Assembly (NCBI RefSeq): GCF_013315695.1
Contig: NZ_CP054353.1
Source: Escherichia coli
GTDB taxonomy: Bacteria; Pseudomonadota; Gammaproteobacteria; Enterobacterales; Enterobacteriaceae
Strand: one strand, 5' to 3'
Length of the DNA: 64,000 nt
The notes under the pieces are model-generated. The model was not told where the DNA came from. It was given only the letters and a program-made list of their open reading frames with translations, and did not search any database. Each line of letters starts with the position of its first letter. The first letter of the stretch is position 1. A program made the translations under genes and the position numbers. This document shows positions 3,646 to 43,935 of this stretch, in pieces.

Positions 3646-4656
3646 ATGACGACGATGCTGGAAGTGGCGAAGCGCGCCGGGGTTTCAAAAGCGACCGTTT
3701 CCCGCGTGCTTTCAGGTAATGGCTACGTCAGCCAGGAGACTAAAGATCGCGTGTTTCAGGCGGTAGAAGAGAGCGGTTACCGCCCAAACTTGCTGGCGCG
3801 CAATCTGTCGGCGAAGAGTACTCAGACGCTGGGGCTGGTAGTGACCAACACGCTTTACCACGGCATTTATTTTAGTGAACTACTGTTTCATGCCGCGCGA
3901 ATGGCGGAAGAGAAAGGGCGACAGTTGCTATTGGCAGATGGTAAACACAGCGCCGAAGAAGAGCGCCAGGCGATTCAGTATCTGCTGGATTTGCGCTGCG
4001 ACGCCATTATGATTTACCCGCGTTTTTTAAGCGTGGATGAGATTGATGACATCATTGACGCACACAGTCAGCCGATAATGGTGCTTAATCGCCGCCTGCG
4101 CAAAAACACCAGCCATAGCGTCTGGTGCGATCATAAACAGACCAGCTTTAACGCCGTGGCAGAGTTGATAAACGCCGGACATCAGGAGATTGCTTTCCTT
4201 ACCGGCTCGATGGATTCCCCCACCAGCATTGAACGTCTTGCCGGGTATAAAGACGCGCTGTCGCAGCATGGTATTGCGCTCAATGAAAAACTTATCGCTA
4301 ACGGTAAATGGACGCCCGCCAGCGGGGCCGAAGGGGTAGAAACGTTGCTCGAACGTGGGGCTAAATTTAGCGCGTTAGTTGCCAGTAACGACGATATGGC
4401 GATAGGTGCGATGAAAGCGTTGCACGAGCGCGGCGTAGCGGTGCCAGAGCAGGTGTCAGTTATCGGATTCGATGATATCGCAATTGCCCCCTATATCGTT
4501 CCGGCGCTCTCCAGCGTAAAAATTCCGGTGACTGAGATGATTCAGGAAATTATTGGACGGCTGATTTTTATGCTCGATGGTGGGGATTTCTCACCGCCGA
4601 AAACCTTCAGCGGAAAACTGATCCGCCGCGGCTCCCTCATTGCTCTTTCGCAATAA
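3646..4656 (+). CDS. ascG: LacI-family transcriptional repressor of the asc operon
   Basis: N-terminal HTH (MLEVAKRAGVSKATVSRVL) and periplasmic-binding-like fold; divergent from ascFB; start chosen at MTTML. Confidence 0.9.
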   Translation: MTTMLEVAKRAGVSKATVSRVLSGNGYVSQETKDRVFQAVEESGYRPNLLARNLSAKSTQTLGLVVTNTLYHGIYFSELLFHAARMAEEKGRQLLLADGKHSAEEERQAIQYLLDLRCDAIMIYPRFLSVDEIDDIIDAHSQPIMVLNRRLRKNTSHSVWCDHKQTSFNAVAELINAGHQEIAFLTGSMDSPTSIERLAGYKDALSQHGIALNEKLIANGKWTPASGAEGVETLLERGAKFSALVASNDDMAIGAMKALHERGVAVPEQVSVIGFDDIAIAPYIVPALSSVKIPVTEMIQEIIGRLIFMLDGGDFSPPKTFSGKLIRRGSLIALSQ

Positions 4657-41218: not shown

Positions 41219-41601
41219 AATTCGGTTACTCCTTTACGAACGTTTTCGATATCGCTTTGCGTACCCATGAGTTCAAAACGGTACAGCCACGGCACGCCGC
41301 ATTTCCGGGCAATCACATCTCCGGCGCGGCCATATGCCTCACCAAAGTTGCGATTACCCGAAGCAATAACGCCGCGCAGCAACGCCCGGTTATGCTCGTC
41401 GTTTAAAAAGCGAATGACCTGTCGTGGCACCGCGCCAGCCGTACCGCCGCCGCCGTAAGAGGGCACGATCAGGATGTAAGGCTCGTCTACCTGAATCCGT
41501 TCCCGCTCATTGAGCGGGATGCGCACCGCGGGCAGCCCTAAACGTTCGATAAAACGCTGCGTATTTTCGGAGCTGCTGGAAAAGTAGACGAGCTGGCTCA
41601 T
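41191..41601 (-). CDS. nrdI: Flavodoxin-like NrdI (RNR class Ib activation)
   Basis: 136-aa ORF overlapping nrdE start and nrdH stop. Confidence 0.93.
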
Positions 41602-41843
41602 GCACTGGCCGCGTGTGGCGCTGGATGCAGACGATTGATCATGTCCGGGCGGAAACCAGACCAGCTAAGATCGCCTGCAATCACAACCGGCAACTGACGA
41701 AAGCCCTGAGCACGCAGCGCTTCTGCCGCTTCAGGAACGCGATCGACATTAATCATTTCAAAATCAAAGCCCCGGTTTTCCATCGCCCGTTTGGTGGCGT
41801 GGCACTGAACGCAATCGTTACGAGTGTAAATAGTAATGCGCAT
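41598..41843 (-). CDS. nrdH: Glutaredoxin-like protein NrdH
   Basis: 81-aa ORF with CVQC redox motif. Confidence 0.93.
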
Positions 41844-42051
41844 GATTCGTATTTCCGTTTAAGATGAAGATACGGCGCGATGATACGCGTCGGGTTGTCT
41901 CTCTGTTGATACAGAGATACTAGATGTAGTTGAAAAAATATTCAACCACACAAGATATGGGAATTTTAGATTTATTACGCCACCGATGAATGGCTCAACG
42001 GGGTAGGGGATTTTGTGTTTTTTTGCCGGGCGAATACCCGGCATCAAGAAG

Positions 42052-42483
42052 TTACATCCGCATGGAAACGGCCAGACGGTTAAAACAATTCATCAGCCCG
42101 ATGGCAAACGTTAAGTCGCTGATCTCTGCTGCGCTGAAATGCTCAAGCAAAGGCTGATAAACCTCGTCTTCCGCATGGGTTCTGGCAATTTCGGTTACCG
42201 ATTCCGCCCATGCCAGCGCCGCCCGCTCGCGTTCATCAAAATGATGGCTTACGCGCCAACCTGCCAGGGCGTCCAGTTTGTGCTGTGGCACGCCGGATTT
42301 GCGCAATGCTTTGCTGTGCATCTCCAGACAAAATGCGCAGCCGTTGATTTGCGAGACGCGCAAATAAACTAACTCCATCAACGTGGTATCCAGCGTGCTA
42401 TTTTCCAGTGCCGTTTTGGCCTGCACTAGTGCGTTATACACTGCCGGGCTAAGTTCGTAGTAAGGCTGACGTAATGTAGTCAT
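42052..42483 (-). CDS. AhpD-like / carboxymuconolactone decarboxylase family protein
   Basis: 143-aa ORF containing the AhpD-core motif CxxCxxxH (GCAFCLEMH). Confidence 0.75.
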   Translation of the reverse strand: MTTLRQPYYELSPAVYNALVQAKTALENSTLDTTLMELVYLRVSQINGCAFCLEMHSKALRKSGVPQHKLDALAGWRVSHHFDERERAALAWAESVTEIARTHAEDEVYQPLLEHFSAAEISDLTFAIGLMNCFNRLAVSMRM

Positions 42484-42570
42484 ACAGTTTCTCCTCTTAT
42501 TAACGCCCGCAATGTAGCACTATAATGGACTGCTAAAGAGAGCCATAAATTACCTAAAAAAGCAGACCAT

Positions 42571-43905
42571 ATGCCGCGCTATCAGGATATCGCCCGTCAG
42601 TTAAAAACGGCTATTGAGCAAGGGGAACTGAAACCCGGCGCAAGGCTGCCTTCAAGTCGTACCTGGTCGCAGGAGCTGGGGGTGTCTCGTTCCACTGTCG
42701 AAAATGCGTATGCTGAGCTGGTGGCGCAAGGATGGCTGATCAGGCGGGGACAGGCTGGCACATTTGTCAGTGAGCGGATATATCCGCAACAATCTACTGT
42801 ACAAGTTGTAGCTTTTGCCGGTGAAAGTCAGCAACCGTTGCCATTTCAAATGGGATTACCCGCACTCGATCTCTTTCCGCGAGAGCTGTGGGCGCGGGTG
42901 ATGGGGCGTCGCCTTCGTACCCAGACGCGCTTTGATTTGGCGTTAGGCGATGTTTGCGGTGAGGTGGCGTTGCGCGAGGCAATAGTTGATTACTTACGCG
43001 TTTCACGTGGGATTGATTGTCAGCCAGAGCAGGTCTTTATCACTCACGGTTATGCGGCCTCAATAGCTTTAATTCTGCACGCGCTGGCGAAACCGGGAAA
43101 CGGGATGTGGATAGAAGATCCCGGCTTTCCACTGATTCGCCCGATTGTCACTCGCCATGATGTGGAAATTTTGCCTGTGCCGGTTGATGACAATGGACTG
43201 GATATCACAAGCGGAATACAAAATTATCCTGATGCGCGTTTTGCCCTGATAACACCAGCACACCAAAGTCCGTTGGGTGTGGCGCTCTCTTTAGCGCGCA
43301 GGCATCAGATACTGGAATGGGCAGATCGTAGTCAGGCATGGATTATTGAAGATGATTATGACAGTGAGTTTCGCTATCACGGTAAGCCGTTACCGGCGTT
43401 AAAAAGTCTCGACGCACCGCAGCGGGTAATTTATGCCGGAACATTCAGCAAAGCGCTATTTCCTGCATTGCGCTGTGCGTGGCTGGTGGTGCCGGTGAAG
43501 CAAATTGCACAATTCCGCCACCAGGCGTCACTGGCTCCATGTGCGGTACCTGTTCTATGGCAGAACACACTGGCAGACTTTCTTCGCGAGGGGCATTTCT
43601 GGCGGCATCTGAAGAAAATGCGTCAGCATTATGCTCAACGTCGGCAATGGATTGAGCAAGCGTTGACGCAGCAAGGATTTCAGGTTGTGCCGCAGAAAGG
43701 TGGTATCCAGATGGTGATCAGAATGATAGGCGATGATATTGCCCATGCGCGTAAAGCCAATGCTGCAGGCCTTGCGGTGCAGGCACTTAGCGACTGGCGT
43801 ATCCGTTCAAGTGGGGAAGGTGGATTACTGCTTTCGTTTACTAATATCGTTAACGAAGGTATGGCGCGACAGGTAGCACAACAATTACGTAAAGCCTTAA
43901 GCTAA
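42571..43905 (+). CDS. MocR/GabR-type regulator (GntR wHTH fused to a PLP-dependent aminotransferase-like domain)
   Basis: N-terminal GntR HTH (LPSSRTWSQELGVSRSTVENAYAELV) and aminotransferase-fold C-terminus with the likely PLP lysine in AGTFSKALFP; divergent from the AhpD-like gene. Confidence 0.8.
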   Translation: MPRYQDIARQLKTAIEQGELKPGARLPSSRTWSQELGVSRSTVENAYAELVAQGWLIRRGQAGTFVSERIYPQQSTVQVVAFAGESQQPLPFQMGLPALDLFPRELWARVMGRRLRTQTRFDLALGDVCGEVALREAIVDYLRVSRGIDCQPEQVFITHGYAASIALILHALAKPGNGMWIEDPGFPLIRPIVTRHDVEILPVPVDDNGLDITSGIQNYPDARFALITPAHQSPLGVALSLARRHQILEWADRSQAWIIEDDYDSEFRYHGKPLPALKSLDAPQRVIYAGTFSKALFPALRCAWLVVPVKQIAQFRHQASLAPCAVPVLWQNTLADFLREGHFWRHLKKMRQHYAQRRQWIEQALTQQGFQVVPQKGGIQMVIRMIGDDIAHARKANAAGLAVQALSDWRIRSSGEGGLLLSFTNIVNEGMARQVAQQLRKALS

Positions 43906-43935
43906 AAAACCCCGAAGCCAGGCTTCGGGGTCAAA
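43905..43935 (-). terminator. Rho-independent terminator of ygaM (hairpin also abuts the MocR-type gene stop)
   Basis: Hairpin ccccgaagcc-a-ggcttcgggg followed on the minus-strand RNA by a U-run. Confidence 0.65.

Follow-up and report, generated by a model that had tools for sequence, protein, structure and literature searches.

MocR-type regulators have been connected computationally with AhpD-family genes: the survey of Suvorova and Rodionov (2016) lists 53 predicted MocR regulons with AhpD-family genes and describes in silico regulogs that join a MocR-type transcription factor (MocR-TF) to COG2128, including those of Salmonella STM2803 and of P. aeruginosa PA0268/PA0269 (PMC5320631). The regulog entered there as 'Spro_3719 - Enterobacteriales' brings together STM2803, CKO_04020, KPN_03002, ECA2654 and Spro_3719, with COG2128 as the target, and COG2128 is likewise the target listed for the PA0268 regulog; two direct repeats and one inverted repeat are given as the commonest MocR motif, with TGG present in most motifs (PMC5320631). 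The name PdxR is in use for regulators of Bacillus clausii, Corynebacterium, Streptococcus and Listeria. The PdxR site of approximately 48 bp combines two direct boxes with one inverted box, in a topology that has been solved, contains an A/T-rich bending tract and is recognized through different pairs of boxes by the apo and holo forms of the protein (PMC10450172). On the enzyme side, the AhpD-family protein PA0269 displays a weak peroxidase activity that is blocked by NEM (PMC3141380).

The divergent gene pair described here lies between nrdH and ygaM in a 64,000-nucleotide stretch of Escherichia coli DNA, hereafter termed the window. The pairing of a MocR regulator with an AhpD-like gene was already predicted computationally in 2016 and is not new; what is added here is an E. 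coli member, its deletion polymorphism and the coordinates of its boxes and promoters. Literature searches returned no functional study of the pair and no experimental datum on it in any organism; the sole use made of STM2804 was as a neutral marker, a site 'with no known function'. The reading that we favour, to which we assign a probability of roughly 0.6, is that an autoregulated MocR-type transcription factor controls a single local target, a PA0269-like thiol oxidoreductase of the AhpD family, and that the two form an ancestral module.

The gene pair and its proteins

The AhpD-like gene (CMD family, COG2128) is located on the minus strand at 42052..42483 and encodes a protein of 143 residues, while the gene for the MocR-type regulator, on the plus strand at 42571..43905, encodes 444 residues; the two open reading frames are divergent and are separated by a gap of 87 bp (42484-42570). 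These positions, put forward in a sequence-only reading of the window, were reproduced from the list of open reading frames and the sequence. Nine nucleotides past the CMD stop codon there is a GC-rich hairpin (42025..42042, minus strand; RNA fold −15.3 kcal/mol, z = −2.2), which on the CMD strand is followed by A7 instead of a U-run and is thus not a canonical terminator; a terminator scan of the interval from CMD to nrdH returned zero minus-strand sites. On the other side, the terminator scan found a hairpin for ygaM (43908..43932, minus strand), which the convergent MocR gene shares at its 3' end. No ahpC-like, pdxS or pdxT reading frame is present in the neighbourhood of the pair.

The assignment of the smaller protein, with its CxxCxxxH motif, to the AhpD core was borne out by matches to Pfam PF02627 (CMD; E = 3.5e-21, 75.4 bits with the cutoff at 23) and to TIGR00778, the AhpD core domain of NCBIfam (54.9 bits with the cutoff at 27.8). 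The active-site motif C49-A-F-C52-L-E-M-H56, encoded at 42316-42339, forms together with the relay residue Glu37 the CxxC, His and Glu proton relay of the AhpD type. Cys49, Cys52 and His56 are invariant in all 64 homologues compared, position 37 is Glu in 45 of them and position 51 is either Phe or Tyr. With P. aeruginosa PA0269 (PDB entries 2IJC/2O4D; E = 3e-31) the protein shares 41% identity. The 'peroxidase/decarboxylase' activity ascribed to it by the sequence-only reading survives in its first half, in that PA0269, to which the protein is similar, is a weak peroxidase that depends on Cys, while a decarboxylase is unlikely. A 4-carboxymuconolactone decarboxylase (PcaC) was rejected because the NCBIfam hits include no PcaC model, a redox CxxC is present instead and the neighbours of the gene are nrdH and ygaM, not pca genes. 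A true AhpD was likewise rejected, given a TIGR00777 score of 30.9 bits, where the cutoff is 191.95, and the lack of a nearby ahpC. By analogy with PA0269, whose activity is very weak, the true substrate of the CMD protein may be something other than a peroxide. Protein z3974 of O157 EDL933 has been pulled down with a salicylidene acylhydrazide and, judging from the order of locus tags, might be the CMD protein of the pair.

The larger protein consists of a GntR winged helix–turn–helix (HTH; residues 4-66, nt 42580-42768, plus strand; PF00392, E = 1.4e-17), a linker and an aminotransferase-fold domain (residues 126-386; PF00155, Aminotran_1_2). These matches, and the fact that the top NCBIfam matches are MocR-type models without exception, uphold its earlier classification as a MocR regulator. 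In comparisons with solved structures it matches PdxR (7PQ9) with an E value of 3e-62 and GabR (4N0B) with one of 2e-54, and its PLP lysine, Lys294 (codon 43450-43452, plus strand), aligns with Lys309 of PdxR and Lys312 of GabR. Neither Lys294 nor the EDDYD.E motif varies among 80 homologues, which makes the proposed PLP-based sensor plausible. Arg207 and Arg430 of GabR, which we take to be its contacts with the carboxylate of GABA, align with Pro/Leu and Asp of the regulator; GABA is therefore an unlikely effector, and a GABA-sensing reading was rejected. Both genes of the pair are under purifying selection, with dN/dS values of 0.03-0.07 for CMD and 0.07-0.10 for the regulator.

The intergenic operator and the proposed switch

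The gap had been singled out as the place to look for a MocR direct-repeat operator, and the search of 42484-42570 found a conserved predicted site of 46 bp (42525-42570), ATGGnCT-N7-AnnGCCAT-N17-AGnnCAT, composed of three boxes, of which boxes 2 and 3 are direct and box 1 is inverted relative to them. Box 1 (ATGGACTGC, 42525..42533) contains an invariant ATGG.CT, box 2 (AGAGCCAT, 42539..42546) an invariant A..GCCAT and box 3 (GCAGACCAT, 42562..42570), which abuts the start codon of the MocR gene, an invariant AG..CAT, in each case across 21 species. The spacing of the boxes is fixed in the alignment of 21 Enterobacterales, while the letters of the spacers vary. An A6 tract between boxes 2 and 3 (42556..42561), kept as A5-7 in 18 Enterobacteriaceae, is by analogy probably a bending element. 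The 46-bp pattern has a single match in the 64-kb window when up to two mismatches are allowed, compared with 0.01 expected, and occurs once per locus, every time in the gap, in 26 Enterobacterales loci that include some outside the set used to derive it; the same three boxes are found at the Salmonella locus. An automated repeat search did not pick up the boxes, whose shortness and degeneracy put them beyond its reach, and the repeat that it did return, CGTAATGTAG/CGCAATGTAG, is not conserved in other species and probably arose by chance.

Promoter elements were called for both genes solely from cross-species conservation; a sigma-70 consensus scan of the gap returned no promoter, and no −35 element passed for the regulator. 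The predicted extended −10 of CMD, TGcTACATT (42511..42519, minus strand), is conserved as TGnTAnnnT in 17 of 18 Enterobacteriaceae and as TAnnnT in 21/21 aligned species, and transcription is predicted to start near 42504; a Shine–Dalgarno sequence, AGGAG (42491..42495, minus strand), lies 7 nt before the ATG and appears in the alignment as a conserved TCCTC. For the regulator, TATAAT at 42521..42526 (plus strand) is the predicted −10, conserved as TAnnAT in all 18 Enterobacteriaceae, with a predicted transcription start near 42533; no Shine–Dalgarno sequence is visible before its start codon, which box 3 touches. The operator is situated upstream of the extended −10 of CMD and downstream of the TATAAT of the regulator, with all boxes 21-66 bp, and box 2 approximately 35-42 bp, upstream of the predicted CMD start.

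Of 78 related loci, 60 have a CMD gene close to that for MocR: in 32 it is divergent and adjacent, in 14 divergent with other genes in between and in 14 downstream on the same strand; in every one of the 32 divergent-adjacent loci the divergent gene is CMD/AhpD-like. This linkage, together with the conserved three-box operator, supports the regulator–target divergon recognized in the sequence-only reading.

From the observed domains, the catalytic and PLP residues, the linkage of the genes, the conservation of the operator and of the −10 elements, and the purifying selection on both genes we infer, as the best explanation, a mode of DNA binding, a sign of regulation, a class of effector and a type of substrate. 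A dimer of the regulator probably binds the operator at 42525-42570, in which boxes 1 and 3 form an outer inverted pair and the inner box 2 directly repeats box 3, with the A-tract between them. Autorepression is expected upon occupation of the boxes, since each of the three is situated downstream of the −10 of the regulator itself. If PdxR and GabR are a guide, the PLP site, holding either PLP alone or an external aldimine with an amine-type effector, would according to its state toggle the two HTH domains between the inverted and the direct pair of boxes. The inverted-pair mode would cover the −35 and spacer region of the CMD promoter and keep CMD off, and the direct-pair mode would set the regulator near −38 and −62, with CMD switched on. 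The Cys49, Cys52, His56 and Glu37 residues of the product would then reduce a peroxide or re-reduce a partner peroxiredoxin.

A simpler arrangement, possible although somewhat unlikely, is a repressor divergon in which occupation of the boxes blocks both promoters and the effector merely releases them, with no activation. The position of box 1 in the predicted spacer of the CMD promoter and of box 2 over its −35 position would suit such a repressor, as would the extended −10 of CMD, which should work without an activator and in this respect speaks against a dual switch; moreover, repressors have been described among MocR members, EnuR being one (PMC8739950). However, the well studied divergent regulators GabR, PdxR and OapR combine autorepression with activation, and three boxes offering two alternative pairs suggest a switch over simple release.

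As to the signal, we tentatively suggest, while regarding it as doubtful, that the regulator is a PLP-based sensor of a reactive amine-type toxin and switches on a thiol-dependent detoxifying enzyme. Candidate toxins would be a hydrazine, hydroxylamine, an aminooxy compound or an arylamine, with the aldimine formed at Lys294. If this were true, PLP chemistry would be linked to thiol-redox defence. The GNAT acetyltransferase, FMN azoreductase, Bcp and DsbD-like genes of sister regulons would fit a scheme of 'reduce, then acetylate or repair'.

A regulator that is a true PdxR, sensing PLP and adjusting vitamin B6 homeostasis with CMD in a B6-related role, is decidedly unlikely and was rejected. 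The NCBIfam PdxR model NF052282 scores the regulator at 407 bits against a cutoff of 320, newer RefSeq records name the gene pdxR, B. clausii PdxR comes closest among solved structures and the operator topology is identical to that of PdxR. However, homologues from Pseudomonas and Pectobacterium that are located beside GNAT-azoreductase-CMD operons likewise exceed the cutoff of NF052282 (422-426 bits), and a rhizopine MocR model scores the regulator nearly as high; the cutoff of NF052282 therefore takes in a broad clade, and the name 'pdxR' looks over-inclusive for this regulator and is probably wrong for the clade. The divergent gene is CMD/AhpD-like, not pdxST. E. coli synthesizes PLP by the PdxA/PdxJ route and is not known to possess PdxST. 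The groups concerned are placed outside the PLP-metabolism regulons in the entries of the Suvorova and Rodionov survey (PMC5320631).

Genomic context and history

The CMD gene is co-directional with nrdHIEF and lies 208 bp upstream of it, an adjacency conserved across Enterobacteriaceae, and no canonical terminator is found behind CMD. A functional tie to nrdHIEF, in which CMD would serve the NrdH/NrdI/NrdEF redox chain or its transcript would read into nrdH, is nevertheless very improbable: Pseudomonas, Burkholderiales and others carry the module without nrd genes, and K-12-like strains devoid of the pair still have the portion of the intergenic region closest to nrdH, with its conserved sequence upstream of that gene. 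The proximity of nrdHIEF, offered by the sequence-only reading as a hint of a redox role, is accordingly a weak clue, for which the thiol active site and the azoreductase, Bcp and DsbD-like genes in sister regulons are a better substitute.

The order nrdI-nrdH-CMD-MocR-ygaM-ygaC is kept in E. albertii, Salmonella, Citrobacter, Kluyvera, Cedecea, Pluralibacter, Shimwellia, Enterobacter and Rahnella, and E. fergusonii also has the regulator. The genome scan covered the best 80 loci, Salmonella not being among them, and the Salmonella locus was reached by protein search. In Salmonella enterica the order is ygaC-ygaM-MocR-CMD-nrdHIEF, with a regulator 74% identical to that of E. coli and a divergent PF02627 CMD gene; its gene order, this identity and its boxes place the E. 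coli pair as an orthologue of the Spro_3719 regulog members, with the Salmonella locus as the presumed STM2803.

The full pair is present in 1,276 of 5,426 complete E. coli genomes and a damaged version in about 111, while the remainder have none; in K-12-like strains, which account for approximately 75% of these genomes, the two genes are deleted from stop to stop. The earlier statement that K-12 lacks the pair holds, since the K-12-type strain DH5a has ygaM directly beside nrdH. At the K-12 junction, a diverged copy of the left intergenic sequence extends up to the CMD stop codon and the retained ygaM terminator follows immediately. As reconstructed from synteny and this junction, the module is ancestral at the nrdH–ygaM locus and was deleted in K-12-like E. 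coli, which turns the impression of 'extra genes' in this strain into that of an ancestral enterobacterial module lost from K-12 and most E. coli. A horizontally acquired, strain-specific islet, which the lack of the pair in K-12 and some 75% of E. coli genomes and the 11% divergence of the O157 regulator allele at the DNA level could suggest, is hardly credible, being refuted by synteny across the enterobacterial taxa listed above, with the regulator also in E. fergusonii, and opposed by the intergenic remnant at the K-12 junction and by a locus with no mobile-element features.

In about 111 E. coli genomes the HTH part of the regulator is cleanly deleted and the target gene is intact; natural isolates with a 589-bp deletion occur. 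The regulator exists in E. coli as two deeply diverged alleles. These HTH-deleted genomes and diverged alleles constitute natural experiments. The system is dispensable, since roughly three quarters of E. coli genomes and the truncated-regulator lineage do without it, a point that weighs against the favoured reading. O157 retains the pair, as do strains that carry the label UPEC or poultry isolate; if the toxin-sensing suggestion were true, having kept the pair, which K-12-like E. coli has lost, would be a stress-tolerance trait of particular lineages.

Comparison with known systems

The practical value of the result is modest, the pair being real but ordinary. Predicted operator and promoter coordinates are now available for a MocR regulog that had so far been computer-predicted. 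MocR regulators with AhpD-family genes are common, and pair-positive E. coli would offer an easy system for finding an effector.

Like the Spro_3719 regulog, the locus combines a MocR-type regulator with an AhpD-family gene (COG2128/PF02627) as its one predicted target, although no E. coli member appears among the entries of that group (PMC5320631). PA0268 is similarly a MocR-TF predicted to control PA0269, as MocR is predicted to control CMD here, but its regulon also includes a cupin (COG1917) and it belongs to a different orthologous group.

For the enzyme, PA0269 is the closest solved relative (2IJC, 2O4D, 7XW1) and has the same Glu/Cys/Cys/His relay, its Tyr50 being replaced by Phe51 in the E. 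coli protein. M. tuberculosis AhpD likewise has a CxxC, His and Glu proton relay on a helix hairpin of the CMD fold; however, its motif is in another region of the chain, the TIGR00777 score of the E. coli protein is far below the cutoff, no ahpC is adjacent and nothing here points to a lipoamide-linked partner.

For the regulator, GabR of Bacillus subtilis has the same domain architecture, its PLP lysine and DDYDSEF motif align with those of the E. coli protein and its logic of divergent autorepressor and activator resembles the one proposed here; the GabR operator consists of two direct repeats only. PdxR of B. clausii, the closest solved regulator, is similar in operator topology, in the divergent intergenic position of the site and in combining autorepression with control of the divergent gene, but differs from the E. 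coli system in that the target here is not pdxST, the sequence of the boxes is different and nothing points to the level of PLP as the signal.

The divergent gene pair and its predicted products

Between nrdH (41598-41843, minus strand) and ygaM (from 43962, minus strand) lie two divergent genes separated by a gap of 87 bp (42484-42570): a minus-strand open reading frame of 143 aa (42052-42483), here called the CMD gene, and a plus-strand open reading frame of 444 aa (42571-43905) encoding a MocR-type regulator. On sequence evidence, the two form a real, conserved and selectively maintained pair of a MocR-type regulator and its AhpD-like predicted target, with a clear three-box predicted operator, and K-12-like E. 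coli have lost the pair through a deletion. The sequence-only reading had described the same open reading frames, gap and domains accurately, and its interpretation as a divergon of a MocR regulator and an AhpD-like target agrees with the domains, the conservation and the predicted operator.

The CMD protein matches PF02627 (E 3.5e-21), scores above the cutoff of the NCBIfam AhpD core domain model and carries the motif C49-A-F-C52-L-E-M-H56. The regulator combines a GntR winged HTH (residues 4-66) with a class I/II aminotransferase domain (residues 126-386), and its top NCBIfam matches are all MocR-type models; the AhpD and MocR assignments are thus upheld by Pfam and NCBIfam profile matches. 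Assignment of the CMD protein as a true AhpD was rejected, as it scores far below the cutoffs of the curated NCBIfam AhpD and related models, and no PcaC model occurs among its NCBIfam matches.

In the regulator, Lys294 (TFSKALFPALR) occupies the position of the PLP lysine in alignments with PdxR and GabR, and the EDDYD-E motif, Ser293, Lys294 and, mostly, Arg301 are conserved among 80 homologues. GabR Arg207 and Arg430, the contacts to the GABA carboxylate, are not kept, the aligned positions being occupied by Pro/Leu and Asp. The relay cysteines and histidine of the CMD protein are invariant in 64 homologues. Its relay, E37/C49/F51/C52/H56, differs at the aromatic position from that of P. 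aeruginosa PA0269 (PDB 2IJC/2O4D; 41% identity), Glu36/Cys48/Tyr50/Cys51/His55, an enzyme with weak peroxidase activity that is blocked by NEM (PMC3141380).

Distribution, loss and allelic variation

Presence and absence across E. coli, a check proposed in the sequence-only reading, were surveyed in 5,426 complete genomes: the whole pair occurs in 1,276 and some part of it in 1,387, every copy being chromosomal and at a single place per genome. The regulator was also scanned against one genome per bacterial species, followed by tblastn searches with the proteins encoded on either side. The gene order nrdI-nrdH-CMD-MocR-ygaM-ygaC was recovered in E. albertii, three Citrobacter species, Pseudocitrobacter, Cedecea, Pseudescherichia, Shimwellia, Pluralibacter, several Enterobacter and Rahnella, as well as on a Salmonella enterica contig (regulator 74% identical), and the E. 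fergusonii proteins fall in the same 90% identity cluster. A Kluyvera locus reads CMD-MocR-ygaM-ygaC with no nrd match. The argument from nrd adjacency to a redox role, made in the sequence-only reading, is weak.

The direct adjacency of ygaM and nrdH given for K-12 in the sequence-only reading was seen in its derivative DH5a. K-12 retains diverged nrdH-side intergenic DNA as far as the site of the CMD stop, and its sequence then resumes at the terminator of ygaM, which comes after the MocR stop codon where the pair is present. Given this junction and the gene order kept across genera, the pair is ancestral, and K-12-like strains have lost about 1.85 kb by a deletion running from stop to stop; the same two observations rule out an acquisition. 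The segment from the conserved sequence upstream of nrdH to the CMD stop (41957-42050) aligns only loosely with that of K-12 (L001, about 1855-1940), where ACGGGGTAGGGG(G)ATTTT(T)GTG remains as the conserved core; this agrees with an old deletion event.

For the CMD gene dN/dS is 0.03-0.07, and the regulator gives 0.07-0.10, in comparisons that covered the window, O157, a further E. coli lineage, E. albertii and Citrobacter; these values indicate that both genes are maintained where present. Two allele classes exist in E. coli, one at least 99% identical (1,007 genomes) and an O157-like one at 90-95% (365 genomes). The regulator DNA (42571-43905) differs by 11% from that of O157:H7 (L002, 2472-3806), and regulator dS between the classes is 0.43, against 0.09-0.29 for flanking genes (window versus O157:H7: nrdH, nrdI, ygaC and the CMD gene 0.09-0.15, ygaM 0.29). 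This divergence and the two classes suggest old alleles or imported DNA. The O157 allele also has an extra 94 bp past the shared MocR/ygaM terminator (L002, about 3835-3930, corresponding to 43932/43933), resembling a REP element (…CCCTGATGCGCTATGTTTTTCAGGCCTGTAGG…).

A 589-bp deletion (42570-43158; compare L084, 1310-2065) whose ends share CCAT microhomology is present in about 111 complete E. coli genomes. Lost with it are the regulator start codon and first 196 codons, including the whole HTH; the CMD gene stays intact and the three boxes nearly so, box 3 losing only its final T. Judged from the sequence, these genomes represent a natural regulator-null lineage.

Predicted operator and promoters

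When the gap is aligned across 21 Enterobacterales, columns without variation occur only at both start codons, at the ribosome-binding site of the CMD gene and in three boxes at fixed spacing: box 1 (ATGGaCTgc, 42525-42533), box 2 (AgAGCCAT, 42539-42546) and box 3 (gcAGaCCAT, 42562-42570), of which box 1 is the reverse complement and box 2 a direct repeat of box 3. In the 18 Enterobacteriaceae of the alignment, box 3 is preceded by an A5-7 tract. The operator search proposed for the gap returned a three-box predicted operator, summarized as a 46-bp pattern, ATGGNCT-N7-ANNGCCAT-N17-AGNNCAT. Even with two mismatches allowed, the pattern matches once in the 64-kb window (0.01 expected), and each of 26 loci has exactly one copy, invariably within the CMD-MocR gap; several of these loci had no part in its derivation, and Salmonella has it too.

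A plus-strand TATAAT (42521-42526; TAnnAT in 18/18 Enterobacteriaceae) and a minus-strand TGcTACATT (42519-42511; TGnTAnnnT in 17/18 Enterobacteriaceae, TAnnnT in 21/21 species) would make up back-to-back promoters with -10 elements 4 bp apart. A generic sigma-70 scan of the gap found nothing, owing to the lack of a recognisable -35. The boxes lie at about -8 to +38 relative to the predicted start of the regulator, all downstream of its -10, a placement that would fit autorepression.

A strong AGGAG precedes the CMD gene, and no Shine-Dalgarno was seen for the regulator in the sequence or the gap alignment. Box 3 abuts or overlaps the regulator start codon in every aligned species; here it (GCAGACCAT) immediately precedes the ATG (42562-42573), and several other genera have a likely start codon that overlaps it (CCATG). 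A stable hairpin (42025-42042, -15.3 kcal/mol) lies 9 nt past the CMD stop codon and is followed on the CMD strand by A7, not a U-run, so that no canonical terminator lies between CMD and the promoter region of nrdH; CMD read-through into nrdHIEF is possible.

Relation to known systems

This kind of system has already been described computationally, and the MocR-CMD pair is one member; the novelty implied in the sequence-only reading does not stand, as MocR-COG2128 regulogs were predicted in 2016. In their supplement, Suvorova and Rodionov (2016) give a regulog 'Spro_3719 - Enterobacteriales' (STM2803, CKO_04020, KPN_03002, ECA2654, Ent638_0497 and Spro_3719) with COG2128 as predicted target of each member, likewise list a 'PA0268' group (PA0268 controlling PA0269) and actinobacterial groups, and place COG2128 in 53 predicted regulons overall (PMC5320631). 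Sister regulons of the same orthologous group listed there add a GNAT acetyltransferase, an AcpD-type azoreductase, Bcp and a DsbD-like protein (PMC5320631). Divergent units in Pseudomonas saxonica (L023, 2352-3874; a three-gene operon of GNAT acetyltransferase, FMN azoreductase-like and CMD genes) and Pectobacterium zantedeschiae (L025, 2871-3918; GNAT then CMD) hint that a broader regulon may deal with xenobiotics or redox stress. A literature search found no experiments on any MocR-CMD regulog member, STM2804 being cited solely as a gene of unknown function.

Newer RefSeq records name the E. coli regulator gene pdxR because the protein passes the cutoff of NCBIfam NF052282 (320 bits). Pseudomonas and Pectobacterium homologues in unrelated contexts, beside GNAT-azoreductase-CMD operons, also pass it (422-426 bits), so the name is probably over-inclusive and over-propagated.

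In the 2016 study, two direct repeats and one inverted repeat form the commonest MocR motif type (32% of regulons), and TGG occurs in most motifs (PMC5320631). B. clausii PdxR has been solved on a 48-bp site with two direct repeats, one inverted repeat and an A/T bending tract; holo-PdxR clamps the outer pair of inverted repeats, and apo-PdxR has comparable affinity for all three repeats (PMC10450172). The 46-bp predicted operator has the same box topology as that site, and its boxes lie upstream of the predicted CMD transcription start (about -21 to -66), the arrangement found at the targets of GabR and PdxR.
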